A DNA stretch of 64,000 bases. Origin: Minisyncoccia bacterium. GTDB lineage: Bacteria; Patescibacteriota; Minisyncoccia; UBA6257; 2-01-FULL-56-20. Numbering within the stretch: the first letter of the stretch is position 1; every line of letters starts with the position of its first letter. Below are positions 10,150 through 45,793 of the stretch, piece after piece. The stretch is taken from contig JBEKRC010000001.1 of assembly GCA_049997875.1 (NCBI GenBank), positions 14,775-78,774 on the forward strand, given 5' to 3'. Under the pieces are notes generated by a model that worked only from the letters and a program-made list of their open reading frames with translations, was not told the DNA's origin and ran no database searches. Made by a program: the position numbers and the translations under genes.

Positions 10150-16881
<6,732 letters not shown>

Positions 16882-16928
16882 TACACACAAAAACGGTGCC
16901 ACTCTTTATTCCAAGAGGTCCCGTTGGC

Positions 16929-20752: not shown

Positions 20753-21057
20753 AAAAGGTCGTTTTGCATGATGAGCGTGCATTTTGCAGACAGTACTCAG
20801 AAGGGCCGTCTGCAAAACGCACACTCACCATGTTCAACTCCATTTGTAGAAAATGGAACGAGCGCTTGCAAAATAGCTTTTGGACGAGAGCCCTTCCGAG
20901 TACTCTCGGACAAAAGCTATTTTGCAAGCACGAAGTCAGCATTGGGATGGTTGGCGGGATTATTAGTACTCCTCGGCTGAAACCCTCGCGGGCCTTACAC
21001 CTGGAGCCTATCAACGTGGTAGTCTTCCACGAAATCACACACACCTAATCTTGGGGT

Positions 21058-21091
<34 letters not shown>

Positions 21092-21231
21092 CTTCCCTAC
21101 ATAGCTACCCGGCAGTTCAGTTGGTACCAAAGCCGGTAGACCAGAGGTAGGTTCAGCAAAGTCCTCTCGTACTAATGCCAACTCCCCTCAAGTGTAAACG
21201 CCTGCAGCAGATAGAGACCGACCTGTCTCAC

Positions 21232-21892
21232 GCAATATATTACTTCACGTCATTACTGACGGTTTGGACTATACCACTATCTCGATCCGCATCGAGATAA
21301 TCGACGTTTTATGGAATTTTTCTTCCATCCAATCTTTTAGATTGAGTCTCTACGGGGTCAATGTATATAATTTTCGCTTCTTTGAATGATTTAATTCTCT
21401 GAAACGATCTACGGTCTTCATCAGCAGGTGAAAATCGTTTCGATCTTTCACCTCAGCTTTCTTATCTAAGATTTCCAGCATAAGCATTGCCTGTTCCTTT
21501 TTCAAAATGAGATATGGCTGGACCATTACGAGGAATGCGCGGATAGCGTCTTCTCTCGCGATGGTATATTCAACCATGCCGTCATTTCTCTCTCGGATAT
21601 ATCCGAGATCAATAAGAGAACAAATCTGCTCGAACTTTTTCAGTTCTTTCCAGAAATCCTGCAATATATGCTTTTTGTGCTGACGAAAGACTTTTACACA
21701 TGACTTCCCTCGGTATTATCCTATAACCATTCAGCGCATCAAAATACTTTTTAATATATTTTTAATGGTCATTATGGTATGCACGTCCACAGGTCATGGA
21801 CGATAGGACTTCACCGATATGAGTCAATTTTTTTCAATCCGCATTACTGCGAAAAGCCGCCGTGTTCGATCATCGTAAAGGGTTCTTTCGTT
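21232..21892 (-). mobile_element. group I intron in 23S rRNA at the E. coli L2593 (I-CreI/I-CeuI) site
   Basis: The exon reads ...GGGUUCAGACCGU | intron | CGUGAGACAGGUCGG. The 5' exon ends in U and the intron ends in G. Confidence 0.7.
21350..21664 (-). pseudogene. N-terminally truncated LAGLIDADG homing endonuclease remnant inside the L2593 intron
   Basis: The 104-aa frame matches the C-terminal half of single-motif LAGLIDADG enzymes. It has no ATG and no LAGLIDADG motif, and an in-frame stop lies 17 codons upstream. Confidence 0.5.
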
Positions 21893-22547
21893 GACGGTCT
21901 GAACCCAGCTCACGTGGGCTTTTAAATGGCGAACAGCCATACGCTTGGGAGCTTCTTCACCCCCGCGCTAGCCCGAGCCGACATCGAGGTGCCGAGCGAA
22001 GTCGTCGATAGGAACTCTCGGACTTCACCAGCCTGTTATCCCCGGAGTAGCTTTTATCCGGTGTCTCCGGCCTTTCTATCAAGAATGCCGTCGGGTCACT
22101 AACTTCTGCTTTCGCACCTGCTCGTCTTGTAGGACTCGCAGTCAAGCCGGCTTTTGCGTTTGCACGTCCTGCCCGATTTCCATCCGGGCTAAGCCGACCT
22201 TAATAAACTCCTCCGTTACTCTTTTGGAGGAAAACGCCCCATTTAAACTGCCTACCAAGCACTGTCTCGGTCGGGTTTATGCTTGCGCACTCCCCAATCG
22301 GTTAGACGTTAAAGTTTTAAAGATGGCTGTTTCATTGTCGGATCCACGATGCCCGAGAGCACCGCTTCAAATCCTCACCACTACGCTACGCAGTAAAACT
22401 CTAAAATCAATACCAAGCTGCAGTAAAGCTTCCGGGGTCTTTTCGTCCCGCTGCAGGTATCCCGCGTCTTCACGGGAATCGCATTTTCACCGAGCTTGCC
22501 TCTGAGACAGTTCTCCAGTCGTTACGCCTTTCGTGCGCTTCGGAACT

Positions 22548-22746
22548 TCATTCCTGTTGTCTTCGATTTCTCGAAGTGTCGGACTATATATTCATCCCGC
22601 CCATGCGGGAGCTTGCGTGTAGTCTCTACGGAGTCCCTGATCGAATCGGGGTTCCCTCGGTATTGCCCTATTTGCCTGTGCAAACGTAGGTTTCACCGAT
22701 ACAGCAAGTGCTTCAAGATCAATCACTTGATCAAGGGGCAAGTTTC
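22548..22746 (-). mobile_element. roughly 200-nt ORF-less insertion in 23S rRNA at about L1951 (possible small or degenerate group I intron)
   Basis: The exon reads ...UUUUCGGGU | about 197 nt | AAGUUCCGAAGCGCACGAA. The insertion ends in G. Confidence 0.45.
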
Positions 22747-22769
22747 CTTACCCGAAAAGGAATTGCGCT

Positions 22770-23517
22770 CAATTGTGTTAATCTGCATGTCGCCATGCAG
22801 TTCGGACCATATCTTCCCGCGATGCGGGTTCGGCATATGGTCTCTGAGGATTCTAGAAACGGATTTTCTTTCGATTCGTTTTTGAAGCAATGGTAAGAAT
22901 TTTATTCCATCCATCTTCTTTGAGATGGAGTTTTTTACTCATCATTTCCACTACCTTTTTGAACAAAACAAAATCGTTTTGCTTATAGGTCTTTAATGGA
23001 AATTGATCAAAAAATGGAATAATTATTTCTTTCAATTCCGAAATTGATCTCACGCAGTATCGATAAAGATGTTCGTTGTGATTATCGCATCGTTTATTAA
23101 GGACGATACTGCCACACCCGAAGAACTCTTTTATCGCTACGAGGGCGTTTAAACTTTTTGCGCCTTGCGTGATAACAAATTCCGGGAATAGTTGCTTTCC
23201 GAATCGAGTGGTTGAATTTTTGATCACCGAAATAACGAAGCTACCTTCGCCGTCGGTAAATCCAGATATCCAACTTGCCGTTTTTAGTCTTTCCTGCTGA
23301 TTGTCTGCACCGATCATATTTTCACTATACTCATGAAACATTAAATTTCTCTAAAGTTTTCATGAAATACAGTAATGTCGGATGCTCAGATGTTCCAGCA
23401 TATAGCCGATTAAAGGATATTCTGCAGGGCAGAATAGGCTGCGCTTTTATTTTGTTGTACCAAAGCCATAATCGTTCCAATCCTCGCCAGCACCTTTAAT
23501 AAATAAAGACGCGGGCG
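22770..23517 (-). mobile_element. group I intron in 23S rRNA at about L1931
   Basis: The exon reads ...AACUAUAAUCGUUCUAAGGU | intron | AGCGCAAUUCCUUUUCGGGUAAG. The intron ends in G and contains an intact homing endonuclease ORF. Confidence 0.7.
22853..23341 (-). CDS. LAGLIDADG homing endonuclease (intron-encoded)
   Basis: The 162-aa product has an N-terminal WISGFTDGEGSF (LAGLIDADG-type) motif, is AT-rich, and is on the same strand as the rRNA. Confidence 0.85.
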   Translation of the reverse strand: MFHEYSENMIGADNQQERLKTASWISGFTDGEGSFVISVIKNSTTRFGKQLFPEFVITQGAKSLNALVAIKEFFGCGSIVLNKRCDNHNEHLYRYCVRSISELKEIIIPFFDQFPLKTYKQNDFVLFKKVVEMMSKKLHLKEDGWNKILTIASKTNRKKIRF

Positions 23518-25132
23518 ACCTTAGAACGATTATAGTTATCGCTGACATTGACGAGGGCTTGAGTCAGTGAGCAATACATATTACTACATATCACCCCCAA
23601 CCTTGACCTTCTCGCATCGGTCAGGCGTCACCCCCTATACATCCTCTTGCGAGTTAGCAGGGAGCTGTGTTTTTGGTAAACAGTCGCCAGAGAAACTTTC
23701 GCTGCGGCTCCATCGAGACTGAAAGAAGGAAGGGAGGGGATCCTCCCTGAAGAATAATTTGGCCGGGCGGTGCACGACGCAGTAAAAACAAGGAGAGCCT
23801 AATCTCTTCATTCCTACTTGCAGTGAAACCGCGCACCACCCGATATGCCGTTTCCTTCTTTCAGCCCCGATAGAGCAGGCCATATTGCTAACGTACGGCC
23901 GCTTTTTTGCCGAGTTCCTTAGAGGCAAATCACTCGTTCCCCTTGGGCTTCTCGCCCTATCCACCTGTGTCGGTTTACGGTACGGATCCTTTGCAACGTA
24001 ACCGCCGCGCTTTTCTCGGAAGGCTCTTCGTGCGTGTTGATGAGGTAAATTCCTCACCTTCCGCCGATCCTTGTTGAACTTCGGACCAGCGATACCAAAC
24101 CAATAAGGCATACGCACCTATTTCCTTCGCACACGACGGATAATCACAAAGGAGGGCTGGAATATTAACCAGCATTCCATCAGCTGCGGCTTTCGCCATC
24201 GCCTTAGGATCGCCTAACCCGTGGTTGATTGCCAGTGCCACGGAAACCTTGGATTTTCGGGGTTCCAATTTCTCATTGGGATTGTGGTTACTCATACCAA
24301 CATTTTCTCTTCGTATCGCTCCACTCGCCCTCACGGGTCGGGCTTCACTGCAATACGAATGCTCTCCTACCACTCACCGATCCCGAAGGATCGGCGAATC
24401 CGTATCTTCGGTACCATGCTTAGCCCCGGTACATTTTCGGCGCCACCACCCGTCGAATAGTGAGTTGTTACACACTCTTTAAAGGATGGCTACCTCTAAG
24501 CCAACCTCCTATCTGTCTATGGGTGATGACTACCTTTAACACTTAGCATGGATTTGGGGACCTTAGATAACGGTCTGGGCTCTTCCCCTCGCGACCACGG
24601 AGCTTAGCCCCCGCAGTCTGACTAGTGCGGGATCCGCCTGCGGTATTCGGAGTTTGATTGATCGATCGGCCTTTCGGCCTTTACCGATCATCCAGTGCTC
24701 TACCCCCGCAGGATTTTCCGCACCGCTAGTCCTAAAACTATTTCGGAGAGAACCAGCTATTACCGAATTCGATTAGCTTTTCACTCCTTACCTCAGCTCA
24801 TCCGAGAGTTTTGAACAACTCACCAGTTCGGGCCTCCCCTTCGATTTCTCGAAGGTTCACCCTGGCCAAGGCAAGCTCATCCGGCTTCGGGTCTACCTTG
24901 TGCTGCGATCCCACTCAATAAATTGAGTGGGATGTACGCCCTATTAAGACTCGCTTTCGCTATGCCTGCACGCTATGCGCGTTTAGACAAGCAACACAAG
25001 ATAAGTCGTTGGCTCATTCTTCAATAGGCACATTGTCGCACCGCGCGGACACATTGCTGCGTCCACGCTTAGTGCTTCAATTCCTTGTAGACAAATGGTT
25101 TCAGGTTCTATTTCAACGGCCTCACCGGCCTG

Positions 25133-25169
<37 letters not shown>

Positions 25170-25859
25170 ATCTAGAAAAGTATTTAGCCTTACCTGATAG
25201 TACAGGCAAATTCCTTCGGGACTTATTTACCCCGAAGTACTCAAGTTGAAAAACTAAGGAGATCGTAAGTTTTCGCCTACGGGACTATCACCCTCTTTGG
25301 CCCCGCCTTTCCAGGCGGCTTCGGCTAACCAACGATTTTTTTACTCCTCCTTATTTCACCAATCGCCGAATCCCCGGGACGTGCCCGGAAACTCGGCGAC
25401 CAGTAAAACAGCGTCTCTCTCTTATAACCCCAAGGTCCGATCTTGCGATCAGAACCTTAGTTTAGGCTCTTCCCTGTTCTCTCGCCGATACTAAGGGAAT
25501 AAACTGATTTGTTCTATGTTCCTTTGGCTACTGAAATGTTTTACTTCGCCAAGTACGCGAATCGGCTTGCGCCGAAACAATTACGGTTTACGTAATTAGG
25601 TTTCCCCATTCGGACATCCCCGGATCACAGGTTGCTACGCACCTCCCCGAGGCGTATCGTCGCTACGCCACGTCCTTCATCGCCTTTTCTAGTCAAGGCA
25701 TCCACCATTCGCCCTTATTGAGATCCGTCTTGCGACGGAAATGCCAACCATCCCAATGCTGACTTTTACTTATTGAGACTGAGAGAAGGAGCGGAAAAGT
25801 TTGGTGATGGTTACCATTCCTCCGCTACTTTCAATATGTTGTTCTCCTGAGCCTGAGTT

Positions 25860-25935
25860 TGGAGCGCGAGACGGGATTTGAACCCGCGACTTCTGCCTTG
25901 GCAAGGCAGCACTCTACCGCTGAGTTACTCGCGCT
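25860..25935 (-). tRNA. tRNA-Gly (GCC)
   Basis: Canonical cloverleaf GCGCGAG...CUGCCUUGCCAAGGCAG...GGGUUCAAAUCCC...CUCGCGCUCCA with CCA encoded. It lies just upstream of the 23S 5' end. Confidence 0.85.
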
Positions 25936-25970: not shown

Positions 25971-26047
25971 GGCTGGCCCGACGGGATTCGAACCCGTGTT
26001 TCCACCTTGAACGGGTGACGTCTTAGCCGCTAAGACGACGGGCCAGC
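25971..26047 (-). tRNA. atypical tRNA-like gene (9-bp acceptor stem; anticodon UUC if the 7-nt loop CGUUCAA is used)
   Basis: GCUGGCCCG...CGGGCCAGC forms a 9-bp acceptor stem. The T-arm ACGGG-UUCGAAU-CCCGU is canonical. The D region is a self-complementary CGUCUUAGC-GG-GCUAAGACG. G sits at position 33. Confidence 0.45.
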
Positions 26048-26454
26048 ATAACATTCCTTCTCTCAGTCTCAATAAGACATACTCTGCTCGCCACGAGAAA
26101 TTGCCACGGAAAACAAAATTTAAAAATGCGATTATATTTTCCGGGGATCCCAACTCGCGCTGGGGTTAAGATGTGACGCAGAGCTTCTGCTATTACGCAC
26201 CTCCGACTCTACAATTCGGAGCCGCCCGATAGTTCATCCAGGCGAATGATGTTAAATTGCTCTTTTCATACGAATCCCAAGTAAAAAATCAGCCGCACAC
26301 GGCGGCTTATCCAGTGCGCAAAAACGCGCGGTTCAGCCGCTGTGATTTGAAAGATTTAATGCCTTGTCCATTCGTATCAGTCCATTATACGCAGGCCCAA
26401 AAGCATGTCAAGTGCCGTTTTCCTGACCACTTCCCTGTTCAATTCCCTAATCAA

Positions 26455-28600: not shown

Positions 28601-29737
28601 CTACCGCACCGTTCCGCCGAACTCCCCGGCAGTCTTTTTTTCAAGCGCGTGATGCATCACGTCCACCTCTGCGTTTGTAAGCGTCCGCTCGTTGCTCCGA
28701 TAGACCACGCGGAAGGTGTAGCTTGTTTTCCCCGCGCCGAACTTTTCCGGATTTTCATACTTATCAAGCAATGCAACCTCCTCCACAAGGTCGCCGCCGA
28801 TATCGCGGATCACGTCAAAATAATTGTTCGGCACAAAGTCCGCACCGACGACAAAAGAGATGTCGCGAGTGACAGGCGGGTACTTGCTTACTTCTTTATA
28901 AGCATTGCCTAAGCGGAGCTGGCGCGTCACGCGCGAATCCGCAGACCACAAAAGCCGGATGTCGGGAAGCTGCATGCTCAAGATTGCGAGCCGCTCCAGG
29001 CCAAAGCCGAACGCCCAACCGTTCCAGATGCGCGAATCAATACCGAAGTTATCCAAAACTTTTGATTGCACGACGCCGCTTCCCAAGACCTCCACCCAGC
29101 GCCCGCCTACTTCTATCACCATCTCCAAGCTCGGGTCCGTGTACGGGAACGTATCTTTATTGAAACGATACTTGATGCCCGGCCCGTAAATCGCCTGCGC
29201 GATTGTTACCAAAACGGCTTTCAGATCTTCCAAGCCGATTTCTTTTTCCTCCCGGCGGCAAAGATACCAACCATCCATCTGGTGGAATACGTTCATGTGC
29301 TCGCGGTCTATTTCATCCTTGCGGTACACCTTGCCATAGCACAGCGCGCCAACCGCTTTCCCCTGCCGTATTTTTTCTTTCACCGCAGAAAGGCCGAGCC
29401 AGTAGTACCACATGATCGTGGTGTGCGTGCGCAAAATGTAGTCGTCGTTCACGTAGTACGTATCGGAGCGGCTGCGGGCGGGATGGTCGGGCGGGAAATT
29501 AAAAAGGTCAAAACTCTCCCGCGCCGGCACGATCTCCGGCACCTGCACAACGTCAAACGCCTTGAAATCCGGGAGCGCCACGATGCGCCGCACAATCTCA
29601 TAAATCGGGCTCCCCTTCGTACGCGAAAGGTCCGGCATCCGCATGAACCGCAGCATGCGCGCCGCTTCCGCGTCGCTCCGTTTTTCTATCTCCGCGCGGA
29701 GCCGCTTTTCCTCCGGTGCCGCGATAACAAGTTCCAT
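28601..29737 (-). CDS. phenylalanyl-tRNA synthetase, monomeric mitochondrial-type (PheS-like catalytic core plus C-terminal FDX-ACB anticodon-binding domain)
   Basis: FNFPPDHPARSRSDTYY (motif 2), GWAFGFGLERLAIL (motif 3), then SKYPPVTRDISFVV...FDVIRDIGGDLVEEVALLDKY...KTSYTFRVVYRSNERTLTNAEV, which is collinear with the human FARS2 C-terminus. There is no bacterial N-terminal coiled coil. Confidence 0.8.
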   Translation of the reverse strand: MELVIAAPEEKRLRAEIEKRSDAEAARMLRFMRMPDLSRTKGSPIYEIVRRIVALPDFKAFDVVQVPEIVPARESFDLFNFPPDHPARSRSDTYYVNDDYILRTHTTIMWYYWLGLSAVKEKIRQGKAVGALCYGKVYRKDEIDREHMNVFHQMDGWYLCRREEKEIGLEDLKAVLVTIAQAIYGPGIKYRFNKDTFPYTDPSLEMVIEVGGRWVEVLGSGVVQSKVLDNFGIDSRIWNGWAFGFGLERLAILSMQLPDIRLLWSADSRVTRQLRLGNAYKEVSKYPPVTRDISFVVGADFVPNNYFDVIRDIGGDLVEEVALLDKYENPEKFGAGKTSYTFRVVYRSNERTLTNAEVDVMHHALEKKTAGEFGGTVR

Positions 29738-29842
29738 TCTTCTGATGGTAGCAAGATTGCAAAACCCGTGCAACCAAAACGAATGATAACTTTTTAATCT
29801 GTGCGCGGGCCTGGACGATCTTCGAACGATGCTTCCGCGAGA

Positions 29843-45718: not shown

Positions 45719-45793
45719 GCGGGTATCGTATAGCGGCTATTATGCGACCTTGCCAAGGTCGAGATACGGGTCCGACTCCCGTTACCCGCTCCA
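45719..45793 (+). tRNA. tRNA-Gly (GCC), second copy with a noncanonical T-loop
   Basis: GCGGGUA...CGACCUUGCCAAGGUCG...ACGGGUCCGACUCCCGU...UACCCGCUCCA. The T-loop is UCCGACU instead of UUCGAAU. CCA is encoded. Confidence 0.7.

Follow-up and report, generated by a model that had tools for sequence, protein, structure and literature searches.

Does a gene that has the shape of a transfer RNA (tRNA), and yet departs from other tRNAs at two near-universal positions, still decode, or does it serve the longer RNA in which it is embedded? The question is raised by a 64,000-nucleotide (nt) stretch of DNA from a Minisyncoccia bacterium (contig JBEKRC010000001.1, positions 14,775 to 78,774; hereafter the window), a member of the candidate phyla radiation (CPR, or Patescibacteria). 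Upstream of the 23S ribosomal RNA (rRNA) gene, the minus strand carries a gene of 76 nt including an encoded CCA (26045→25970), which ARAGORN, Rfam, folding and matches to annotated tRNAs mark as tRNA-shaped and tRNA-Glu-derived. An earlier note on this DNA had offered three options: a noncanonical tRNA-Glu, a tRNA-like processing element in the rRNA-tRNA precursor, or a decaying tRNA. The second fits best, as the gene rides in a hairpin of the 23S leader, strong purifying selection acts on its body, and its anticodon is UUC here and AUU in a sister species. With a probability of about one half, we favor the reading that the gene derives from a tRNA-Glu, has largely ceased to decode, and is retained as a processing ("punctuation") element in pre-23S RNA.

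The tRNA-shaped gene itself is borne out by several methods. ARAGORN, which the earlier note had proposed as a check, calls it tRNA-Glu(ttc), and the Rfam tRNA model RF00005 matches it at 47.4 bits (E = 5e-7 in the 64-kb window), against a gathering score of 29. This is the lowest Rfam score among the window's six tRNAs, yet a clear match, so the sub-threshold covariance score that had been allowed for did not materialize. The window copy has the overall tRNA fold, with a 7-base-pair (bp) acceptor stem, a 5-bp T stem, and 7-nt anticodon and T loops; its fold z score is −3.1, and none of 200 shuffled sequences folds equally well. Only the span needed correcting, as the one first given held two leader bases too many and lacked the final A.

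In the covariance-model alignment, the acceptor stem is the standard 7 bp, from U1-A72 to G7-C66, followed by U8 and C9, and the 3' end consists of the discriminator G73 and then the encoded CCA. The 9-bp acceptor stem reported earlier came from misreading as one stem this 7-bp helix and two leader bases, G(-2) and C(-1) (26046..26047, minus strand). These form an inverted repeat with C74 and G73, with which they can pair; the same GC is present in the sister species, and such pairs with the GCCA end could exist only in the precursor. The D stem is GUCU/AGAC with the D loop UAGCGGCUA, and the anticodon stem UCACC/GGUGG carries the loop CGUUCAA, with G33 and the triplet UUC. The variable loop has 4 nt (AAAC), and the T arm, ACGGG-UUCGAAU-CCCGU, is canonical. 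Here the alignment agrees with the first description, which had a perfect T arm, G33 in this same anticodon arm and a short variable region. The self-complementary D region noted at the same time is equally real: it zips into 8 bp with a CGG loop, and this is the minimum-free-energy state, at −33.1 kcal/mol versus −26.4 for the canonical cloverleaf with its 4-bp D stem, making the zipped form 6.7 kcal/mol more stable. Searched for as a repeated DNA-binding site, the palindromic D arm gave a single occurrence in the window. We also considered the plus strand, where the gene could be mirrored as a tRNA-Phe(GAA), and rejected it; its T loop would read AUUCGAA, a CCA is missing, and Rfam gives merely weak sub-threshold matches to Plastid-ycf2.

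What kind of tRNA is this? In the annotated E. coli and phage collections, the sequences that match it best over its full length are tRNA-Glu genes (76–81% identity). The body is of the Glu type in its D arm starting GUCU, its 4-nt variable loop and its T arm, the last identical to that of Firmicute-type tRNA-Glu; the triplet UUC, A37 and U11-A24 are further Glu-type traits. Judged by these traits, the gene descends from a tRNA-Glu. Compared with three aligned tRNA-Glu genes, two near-universal positions are altered, A14 to U and U33 to G, and U14 is seen in both the covariance-model and the MAFFT alignments, in both species. A canonical elongator has U33, which makes the U-turn 5' of the anticodon, and A14, which pairs with U8, together with an open D loop; the gene has G33 and U14 in both species, whereas A14 and U33 are present in 19/19 other tRNAs from the window and the relatives' loci. 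The D loop can zip up because of the A14-to-U change: U14, together with a change of G22 to A, allows the pairs U13-A22, U14-A21, A15-U20a and G16-C20. The anticodon loop reads CGUUCAA versus the canonical CUUUCAC of tRNA-Glu, and pair 1-72 is U-A in the window or A-U in the sister species, not G-C. In E. coli the D helix is the main identity element for glutamyl-tRNA synthetase (GluRS), and bacterial GluRS reads the anticodon.

The location of the gene is as unusual as its sequence. On the transcribed strand, the order is a single-chain phenylalanyl-tRNA synthetase (PheRS), cca, a small open reading frame (ORF), tRNA-Pro(CGG), a promoter, a conserved leader of ~300 nt, the tRNA-Glu-derived gene, tRNA-Gly(GCC), 23S and 5S. 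Homologues of the CCA-adding enzyme encoded by cca place the organism in the Patescibacteria, as one of the Minisyncoccia/Paceibacteria type. The place given earlier, between tRNA-Gly and the rRNA leader, was close but imprecise, as the gene lies upstream of tRNA-Gly and inside the 23S leader. Eight species of the lineage were sampled, that of the window and those of the loci L001, L002, L004, L016, L017, L024 and L025. A promoter scan finds a sigma-70-type promoter, TTGACA-16 nt-TATAAT (12/12; 26384..26411, minus strand), in a region conserved in L001, L002, L004 and L016. This promoter likely drives a leader-tRNA-23S-5S transcript, and the scan flagged no terminator between the tRNA-shaped gene and 23S. 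At the other end of the leader, a reverse-complement search and a duplex fold identify the 23S processing stem, whose 5' strand (25743..25765, minus strand) pairs perfectly over 23 bp with 20955-20933 past the 23S gene. Leader-trailer matches of this kind are also present in L001, L002 and L004.

Between the conserved leader and the processing stem stands a long hairpin, an optional expansion within a narrow clade of Patescibacteria. Its 5' arm, CUUAUUGAGACUGAGAGAAGGA (26055..26076, minus strand), is a perfect 22-bp complement of 25790-25769, its 3' arm, UCCUUCUCUCAGUCUCAAUAAG (25769..25790, minus strand), ends 3 nt before the processing stem, and the same arms are present in L016 and L017. 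The 22-bp stem encloses the tRNA-shaped gene and a second cargo, a canonical tRNA-Gly(GCC) with an encoded CCA (25860..25934, minus strand; ARAGORN; Rfam, 71.2 bits), which is absent from the L016 hairpin. Folding the 346-nt region yields this stem in the minimum-free-energy state (z = −8.9). Compared with L001, the closest relative, whose cca is 93% identical, the window has ~350 nt extra, exactly between the conserved leader and the processing stem. The hairpin is not an assembly artifact, because nine independent assemblies of this organism, made from different samples, all have the identical 351-nt sequence. A mobile element resembling a miniature inverted-repeat transposable element, with terminal inverted repeats, was considered and rejected, as there is no target-site duplication and the arms in L017 enclose unrelated cargo; we see in the stem an expansion segment common to these species, not a pair of transposon ends. 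We also looked within the hairpin for a kissing partner of the anticodon loop. A 5-nt UUGAA match seen by eye in the window has no covarying partner in L016, and we took it as chance.

The strongest evidence on function comes from L016, the locus of a sister species with a complete chromosome (OY970175.1), whose cca is 91% identical to that of the window. At the same position it has a homologous 76-nt gene, which ARAGORN calls tRNA-Asn(att) and which scores 42.8 bits on the Rfam model, again above the gathering score. Its D arm, U14 and G33 are unchanged. Pair 1-72 has gone from U-A to A-U, a compensatory swap, and a change of G43 to A turns the U27-G43 wobble into a Watson-Crick U27-A43 pair. 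The anticodon loop has become CGAUUAG, with the triplet AUU, and C32 and G38 can close it to 5 nt. Orthologous genes at the same locus and with the same body therefore differ in their anticodon, UUC in one species and AUU in the other.

As a neutral proxy we used the four-fold degenerate sites of cca, of which 70/202 (35%) differ between the window and L016. The body of the gene, defined as the 61 positions outside linear positions 35–49, differs at two, both of them in the compensatory 1-72 pair (P = 3e-9 under the neutral rate). The remaining patch of 15 positions, comprising the anticodon loop, the 3' strand of its stem, the variable loop and base 49, differs at seven; this fits the neutral rate (P = 0.24) and not the leader's 5.6% rate (P = 8e-6), and it sets the patch apart from the body (Fisher P = 8.5e-5). 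In this two-species comparison, strong purifying selection acts on the tRNA shape but not on the decoding end. Selection would thus not be on decoding, because the orthologous anticodon is AUU while the body is conserved. The decaying tRNA of the earlier note is contradicted by the same numbers, the only body differences being a compensatory swap at a locus with 35% neutral divergence.

How might such an element work? We propose that the gene is transcribed within pre-23S RNA from the promoter at 26411-26384 and, as sequence and folding indicate, takes up a tRNA-like fold inside the loop of the 22-bp stem that abuts the 23S processing stem. The tRNA-end machinery would then excise it, with RNase P acting at the 5' end and trimming to the encoded CCA at the 3' end, and RNase III would probably cleave the long stem alongside. 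Such excision would be the reason why selection keeps the acceptor stem, T arm, D arm and CCA end, leaving the decoding end free to drift. By the time of the last ancestor that both species share, G33 and U14 would already have taken the gene out of efficient decoding; the triplet would have diverged afterwards, with UUC in the window species and AUU in the sister species.

This proposal has a model in organelles. RNase P and RNase Z cut the t-elements of plant mitochondria (Forner et al. 2007, PMC1920247). Like the present gene, t-elements have a tRNA-like fold with a perfectly conserved T arm within a longer transcript; they are proposed to direct the RNase P and 3' cleavages that mature the flanking RNA, and their anticodon region is unconstrained. 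Embedding of this kind is seen in the window too, where the tRNA-like fold, its T arm conserved, occupies a 23S leader hairpin that stops 3 nt short of the processing stem and has a conserved promoter upstream. Selection also follows the same pattern, with the top half kept and the anticodon not, in a comparison of two species only. Relatives' operons offer a precedent in the tRNAs held in 23S stems in L001 and L002 and in an anticodon-less module in L002. Unlike t-elements, the present element is bacterial, lies in a 23S leader inside a long RNase III-type stem, has a full cloverleaf and an encoded CCA, and is clearly a recent tRNA-Glu derivative. On balance, the chances are about even that the gene behaves like a bacterial counterpart of the t-element and not like a working tRNA-Glu. 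If so, bacteria use an organellar tRNA-shaped cut-here signal inside an rRNA precursor, and they do so in a group, the CPR, whose rRNA genes are known to be odd and whose RNA-processing machinery is known to be reduced.

Several points weigh against a processing role. The element is sporadic: of the eight species, two carry it, a third has something unrelated in its copy of the hairpin, and the other five lack cargo of this kind. Maturation of 23S therefore cannot depend on it, and the element may simply be tolerated as long as it stays excisable. The carriers are two species, the L016 copy comes from a single assembly, covariation support amounts to one base pair only, and the retention of G33 alone is statistically uninformative, since the site would stay unchanged with a probability of ~0.65. 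Co-transcription and processing of the element are inferred. RNase P and the 3' enzymes need neither the D arm nor the anticodon stem's 5' strand, and yet both are invariant, which hints at an extra constraint, for example a block to GluRS recognition or the binding of a protein. In the window the triplet still matches the Glu-type body and the CCA is intact, so the RNA could be charged and could decode. Last, a canonical tRNA-Glu in the window genome, of which ~64 kb is visible, is presumed from L016.

That presumption comes from a search for the combined D arm and T loop pattern. Across 185,579 species genomes it has one match, the AUU element of OY970175.1, which is single in that chromosome. 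Because this is the sole D-arm match in a complete chromosome, the true tRNA-Glu of the L016 species must, on this evidence, have a different D arm, and it is that tRNA which would decode GAA/GAG. By inference from L016, the window genome likewise would have another tRNA-Glu. The pattern has 0 matches in viral contigs, and in JGI metagenome contigs it has only two irrelevant ones, a chance match and a low-GC tRNA-Gln.

Could the gene simply be an extra tRNA-Glu(UUC), working but inefficient, that rides on rRNA-operon transcription as spacer tRNAs do? G33 would then just lower efficiency, and the L016 copy would have lost the role. The noncanonical tRNA-Glu of the earlier note keeps some probability for the window species, given the Glu-type body, the UUC triplet and a precedent for G33. 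ARAGORN and Rfam both call a tRNA, the Glu-type body comes with A37, the 4-nt variable loop, U11-A24 and the Firmicute-type T arm, the CCA end is encoded, and the partner tRNA-Gly in the hairpin is fully canonical. Natural G33 tRNAs do decode, as in the tRNA-Ser(CAG) of Candida (PMC8178436; PMC11415595). Against this stand U14 in combination with G33, where every other tRNA of the lineage that we compared has A14 and U33; the zipped D arm, which is the more stable form and alters the D helix; a pair 1-72 that is U-A or A-U; and the orthologue, where a non-Glu triplet, AUU, sits on the conserved body. The other cargo also speaks against a decoding role. A second tRNA-Gly(GCC) lies on the plus strand at 45719-45793 (54.9 bits), and the alignment shows its stems to be very different from those of the hairpin copy. 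Because the tRNA-Gly(GCC) of the hairpin duplicates a resident anticodon, the cargo seems supplementary to the resident tRNA set. We thus consider an extra tRNA-Glu unlikely, though the idea deserves to be kept in view.

A more doubtful alternative is that the excised RNA acts in trans, either as a mistranslating or dual-identity tRNA of the tRNA-ProX or Candida tRNA-Ser(CAG) type, or as a pseudo-tRNA that binds a protein or donates an aminoacyl group. This would account for a D arm and an anticodon-stem 5' strand conserved past the needs of end processing, and the CCA end is conserved as well. A base other than U33 is a reported hallmark of natural mistranslating tRNAs (PMC11415595). In two known cases, as here, a purine replaces U33 in an otherwise recognizable tRNA: the Candida tRNA-Ser(CAG) is a natural G33 tRNA that decodes (PMC8178436), and the actinomycete tRNA-ProX has A33 and A34, with the anticodons AGC, AUU and AGU (PMC11415595). 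The L016 homologue, with G33, A34 and AUU on a Glu-type body, runs parallel to tRNA-ProX, and AUU is the anticodon reported for tRNA-ProN (PMC11415595). Those tRNAs have been shown to be aminoacylated and to decode, and tRNA-ProX genes adjoin a dedicated ProRSx.

The present element has no partner enzyme nearby, its anticodon is not conserved, and position 14 is changed too, to U. No dedicated synthetase or aminoacyl-tRNA-dependent transferase was found near the gene, and in the 64-kb window there is no co-encoded synthetase of the tRNA-ProX kind, nor a paralogue of GluRS or of any other aminoacyl-tRNA synthetase beside the gene or elsewhere. What the window holds are only single housekeeping copies of SerRS, ThrRS, PheRS, GatCAB, cca and MiaA. 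Body and anticodon identity agree in the window (both Glu), so nothing would be mistranslated, and they differ in L016, where the AUU variant is unlikely to be charged with Glu, as the anticodon is among the features that GluRS reads in bacteria. In L016 the anticodon loop is able to close to 5 nt, and the changes in the loop are compatible with neutral drift. A broader version, drawn by analogy and in our view improbable, would make the stem-loops of CPR rRNA operons (the 23S leader hairpin and the site inside 23S) landing pads for tRNA-shaped cargo; the excised G33/U14 RNA would be a trans-acting tRNA with a re-targetable anticodon (UUC to AUU), serving as a damped mistranslator or as a non-ribosomal aminoacyl carrier or decoy, all without a dedicated synthetase. 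Should the RNA turn out to be charged, it would count among the rare G33 tRNAs of bacteria, and the AUU sister would become a candidate mistranslator.

Nor do we find decay probable, with the gene as a pseudogene or neutral passenger that came from a duplication or horizontal transfer of a tRNA-Glu and, without a function of its own, is slowly degenerating in a tolerated hairpin. The hairpin and its cargo are sporadic among relatives and the cargo is interchangeable, two universal positions have already been lost, and the anticodon loop evolves at the neutral rate, all of which decay would explain. It would not explain a body so far below neutral divergence, in which the two differences compensate each other and a third change, that of G43, improves a stem pair, or a sequence that is identical in nine assemblies. 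Some of this conservation may come from the need to stay foldable and excisable, but that shades into the processing role we favor, not into decay.

We hold it very improbable that this is an exotic tRNA akin to tRNA-Sec or the allo-tRNAs, whose acceptor stem would be 9 bp, whose D stem would be long and whose anticodon might be shifted to read a stop codon. In its favor, both species allow the pairing of G(-2) and C(-1) with C74 and G73, the D stem can reach 8 bp, and the loops read one base 3'-ward give UCA in the window and UUA in L016. Against it, the alignment has a 7/5 acceptor/T arrangement followed by G73-CCA, so that a 9-bp stem would use up the discriminator and C74, the variable loop has only 4 nt, the 7-nt loop fixes the triplet at positions 34–36, the base before UUA in L016 is A and not U, and no SelA, SelB or SelD was found among the window ORFs scanned with Pfam, a subset of the ORFs. 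The earlier note had already turned this type down, and the 7/5 arrangement, the small variable loop and UUC within a 7-nt loop confirm that judgment.

Other known systems resemble parts of the locus. Spacer and distal tRNAs of rRNA operons are likewise co-transcribed with rRNA and released by RNase P, and the partner tRNA-Gly fits that class. Those tRNAs are canonical decoders at fixed sites, in the 16S-23S spacer or after 5S, unlike the present gene, which lies in an optional 23S leader hairpin, has U14 and G33, and differs in anticodon between sister species. Intervening sequences (IVSs) of 23S genes are extended stem-loops inserted in a helix of the mature rRNA, which some close relatives have and others lack and which RNase III presumably excises from the precursor, and the stemmed, tRNA-bearing insertions within the 23S genes of L001 and L002 resemble them. 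The window hairpin shares the long perfect stem and sporadic distribution of an IVS, but it stands in the leader and not in mature 23S. The mascRNA of MALAT1 and the tRNA-like domain of transfer-messenger RNA (tmRNA) mimic the acceptor and T arms and are recognized by tRNA-end enzymes, a likeness that extends to a match between the L002 module and the tmRNA domain. In contrast, the tRNA-shaped gene of the window scores far below the thresholds of such mimics (mascRNA, 17.5 versus 42.5; RAGATH-21, 23.6 versus 70.3), which reflects generic tRNA likeness only.

Each ingredient of our reading is already known separately, namely, tRNA-like processing signals, tRNAs within rRNA operons and non-U33 tRNAs. 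In the literature searched, we found no description of a G33/U14 tRNA-Glu derivative in a CPR 23S leader hairpin, of tRNA-like elements in CPR rRNA leaders or insertions more generally, of IVSs carrying tRNA cargo, or of tRNA genes nested within a 23S rRNA gene. There is also a practical side. Annotation pipelines will label the window gene "tRNA-Glu" and its sister "tRNA-Asn(ATT)", which can distort inferences about tRNA complements and genetic codes.

The relatives vary in both their leaders and their 23S genes. The window has the leader hairpin with the Glu-like gene and tRNA-Gly, and no tRNA-shaped cargo was found inside its 23S. L016 has the same hairpin with the Glu-like gene only, and none was found in the part of its 23S that the locus covers before ending inside that gene. 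In L017, the same hairpin arms hold an unrelated structured cargo of ~270 nt, L004 has a short hairpin stub, L025 has a different hairpin and L024 has no hairpin; no tRNA-shaped cargo was found within 23S in these four. L001 and L002 have no leader hairpin, and their 23S genes carry a tRNA-Lys(CUU) in the former and a tRNA-Pro(CGG) plus a tRNA mimic in the latter. The unrelated cargo of L017 (L017:13530-13810) is highly structured; the 351-nt hairpin stretch folds at −135.9 kcal/mol and has no Rfam match at the gathering threshold.

The 23S insertions of L001 (L001:14166-14536) and L002 (L002:15055-15484) are 360–430 nt long, occupy one site, and are closed by stems of 19–20 bp with a tRNA inside. 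Both tRNAs score well, the tRNA-Lys(CUU) at 67.9 bits and the tRNA-Pro(CGG) at 65.2 bits, and the latter is the second copy of that anticodon in the L002 locus. The site corresponds to about 24380-24395 of the window, where there is almost no insertion; L016 and L017 have shorter, tRNA-free ones. Lacking an anticodon, the mimic in the L002 insertion (L002:15098-15185) is built from an acceptor stem of 6 bp, a single long arm, a T arm and ACCA. Its match to the tRNA-like domain of tmRNA, at 20.8 bits (E = 1.6e-6), falls short of the gathering score, and it folds cleanly (z = −3.3). A further module, GGAGGGGC...GCCCCUCC-GCCA, can be seen by eye after the mimic in L002. We also saw by eye a second tRNA-like module in the L001 insertion; its fold is unconvincing (z = −1.8), and we do not rely on it. 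These tRNAs and anticodon-less mimics nested in 23S stems may be a more interesting lead than the window gene, as they would imply a 23S rRNA fragmented via tRNA punctuation.

The rRNA genes of the window have features of their own. The 23S gene is ~4.8 kb long (20943-25728, minus strand). A first Rfam pass had put its 3' end at 21811, and we place it near 20943 because of the leader-trailer stem and the homology with L001; the 3' strand of that stem (20933..20955, minus strand) marks the true 3' end region, ~0.9 kb past the first call. Two elements lie within the gene: a group I intron (22759-22560, 53.6 bits) and an ORF with LAGLIDADG_1 (23341-22853). The 64-kb window has no 16S gene, so the rRNA genes are unlinked; the chromosomes of relatives are ~0.9 Mb. 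Between the promoter and the tRNA-shaped gene, a terminator-like hairpin at 26291-26307 (minus strand) is formed by AGCCGCCGUGUGCGGCU and then GAUUUUUUAC. It lies ~80 nt downstream of the rRNA promoter, in the part of the leader that aligns with L001. Further downstream in the leader, a CUCCGAAUUGUAGAGUCGGAG hairpin is invariant in four species, and the two hairpins may be an attenuator and antitermination signals.

The surrounding genes show further departures. PheRS (28601-29773, minus strand) is a single chain of ~380 amino acids (aa), with a class II catalytic core (tRNA-synt_2d) and, at the C terminus, an anticodon-binding FDX-ACB domain, a layout that we take to be of the mitochondrial PheRS type rather than the bacterial alpha2-beta2 type; it is conserved and syntenic in all sampled relatives. 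In L017, the region just upstream of the PheRS-cca block (L017:2030-7068) has matches to TraG/TrwB-type coupling proteins and a weak Replic_Relax match, and these conjugative-type genes suggest an integrated mobile element. In L024, a bAvd-like gene adjoins a reverse transcriptase (RVT_1) upstream of PheRS (L024:6902-8293), a pair that presumably belongs to a diversity-generating retroelement. Elsewhere in the window, RNA polymerase beta and beta' are fused in one ORF of 2,250 aa (10150-16902, minus strand), with all RpoB domains followed by all RpoC domains, and a fused RpoB-RpoC ORF of 2,246 aa is also present in L025.

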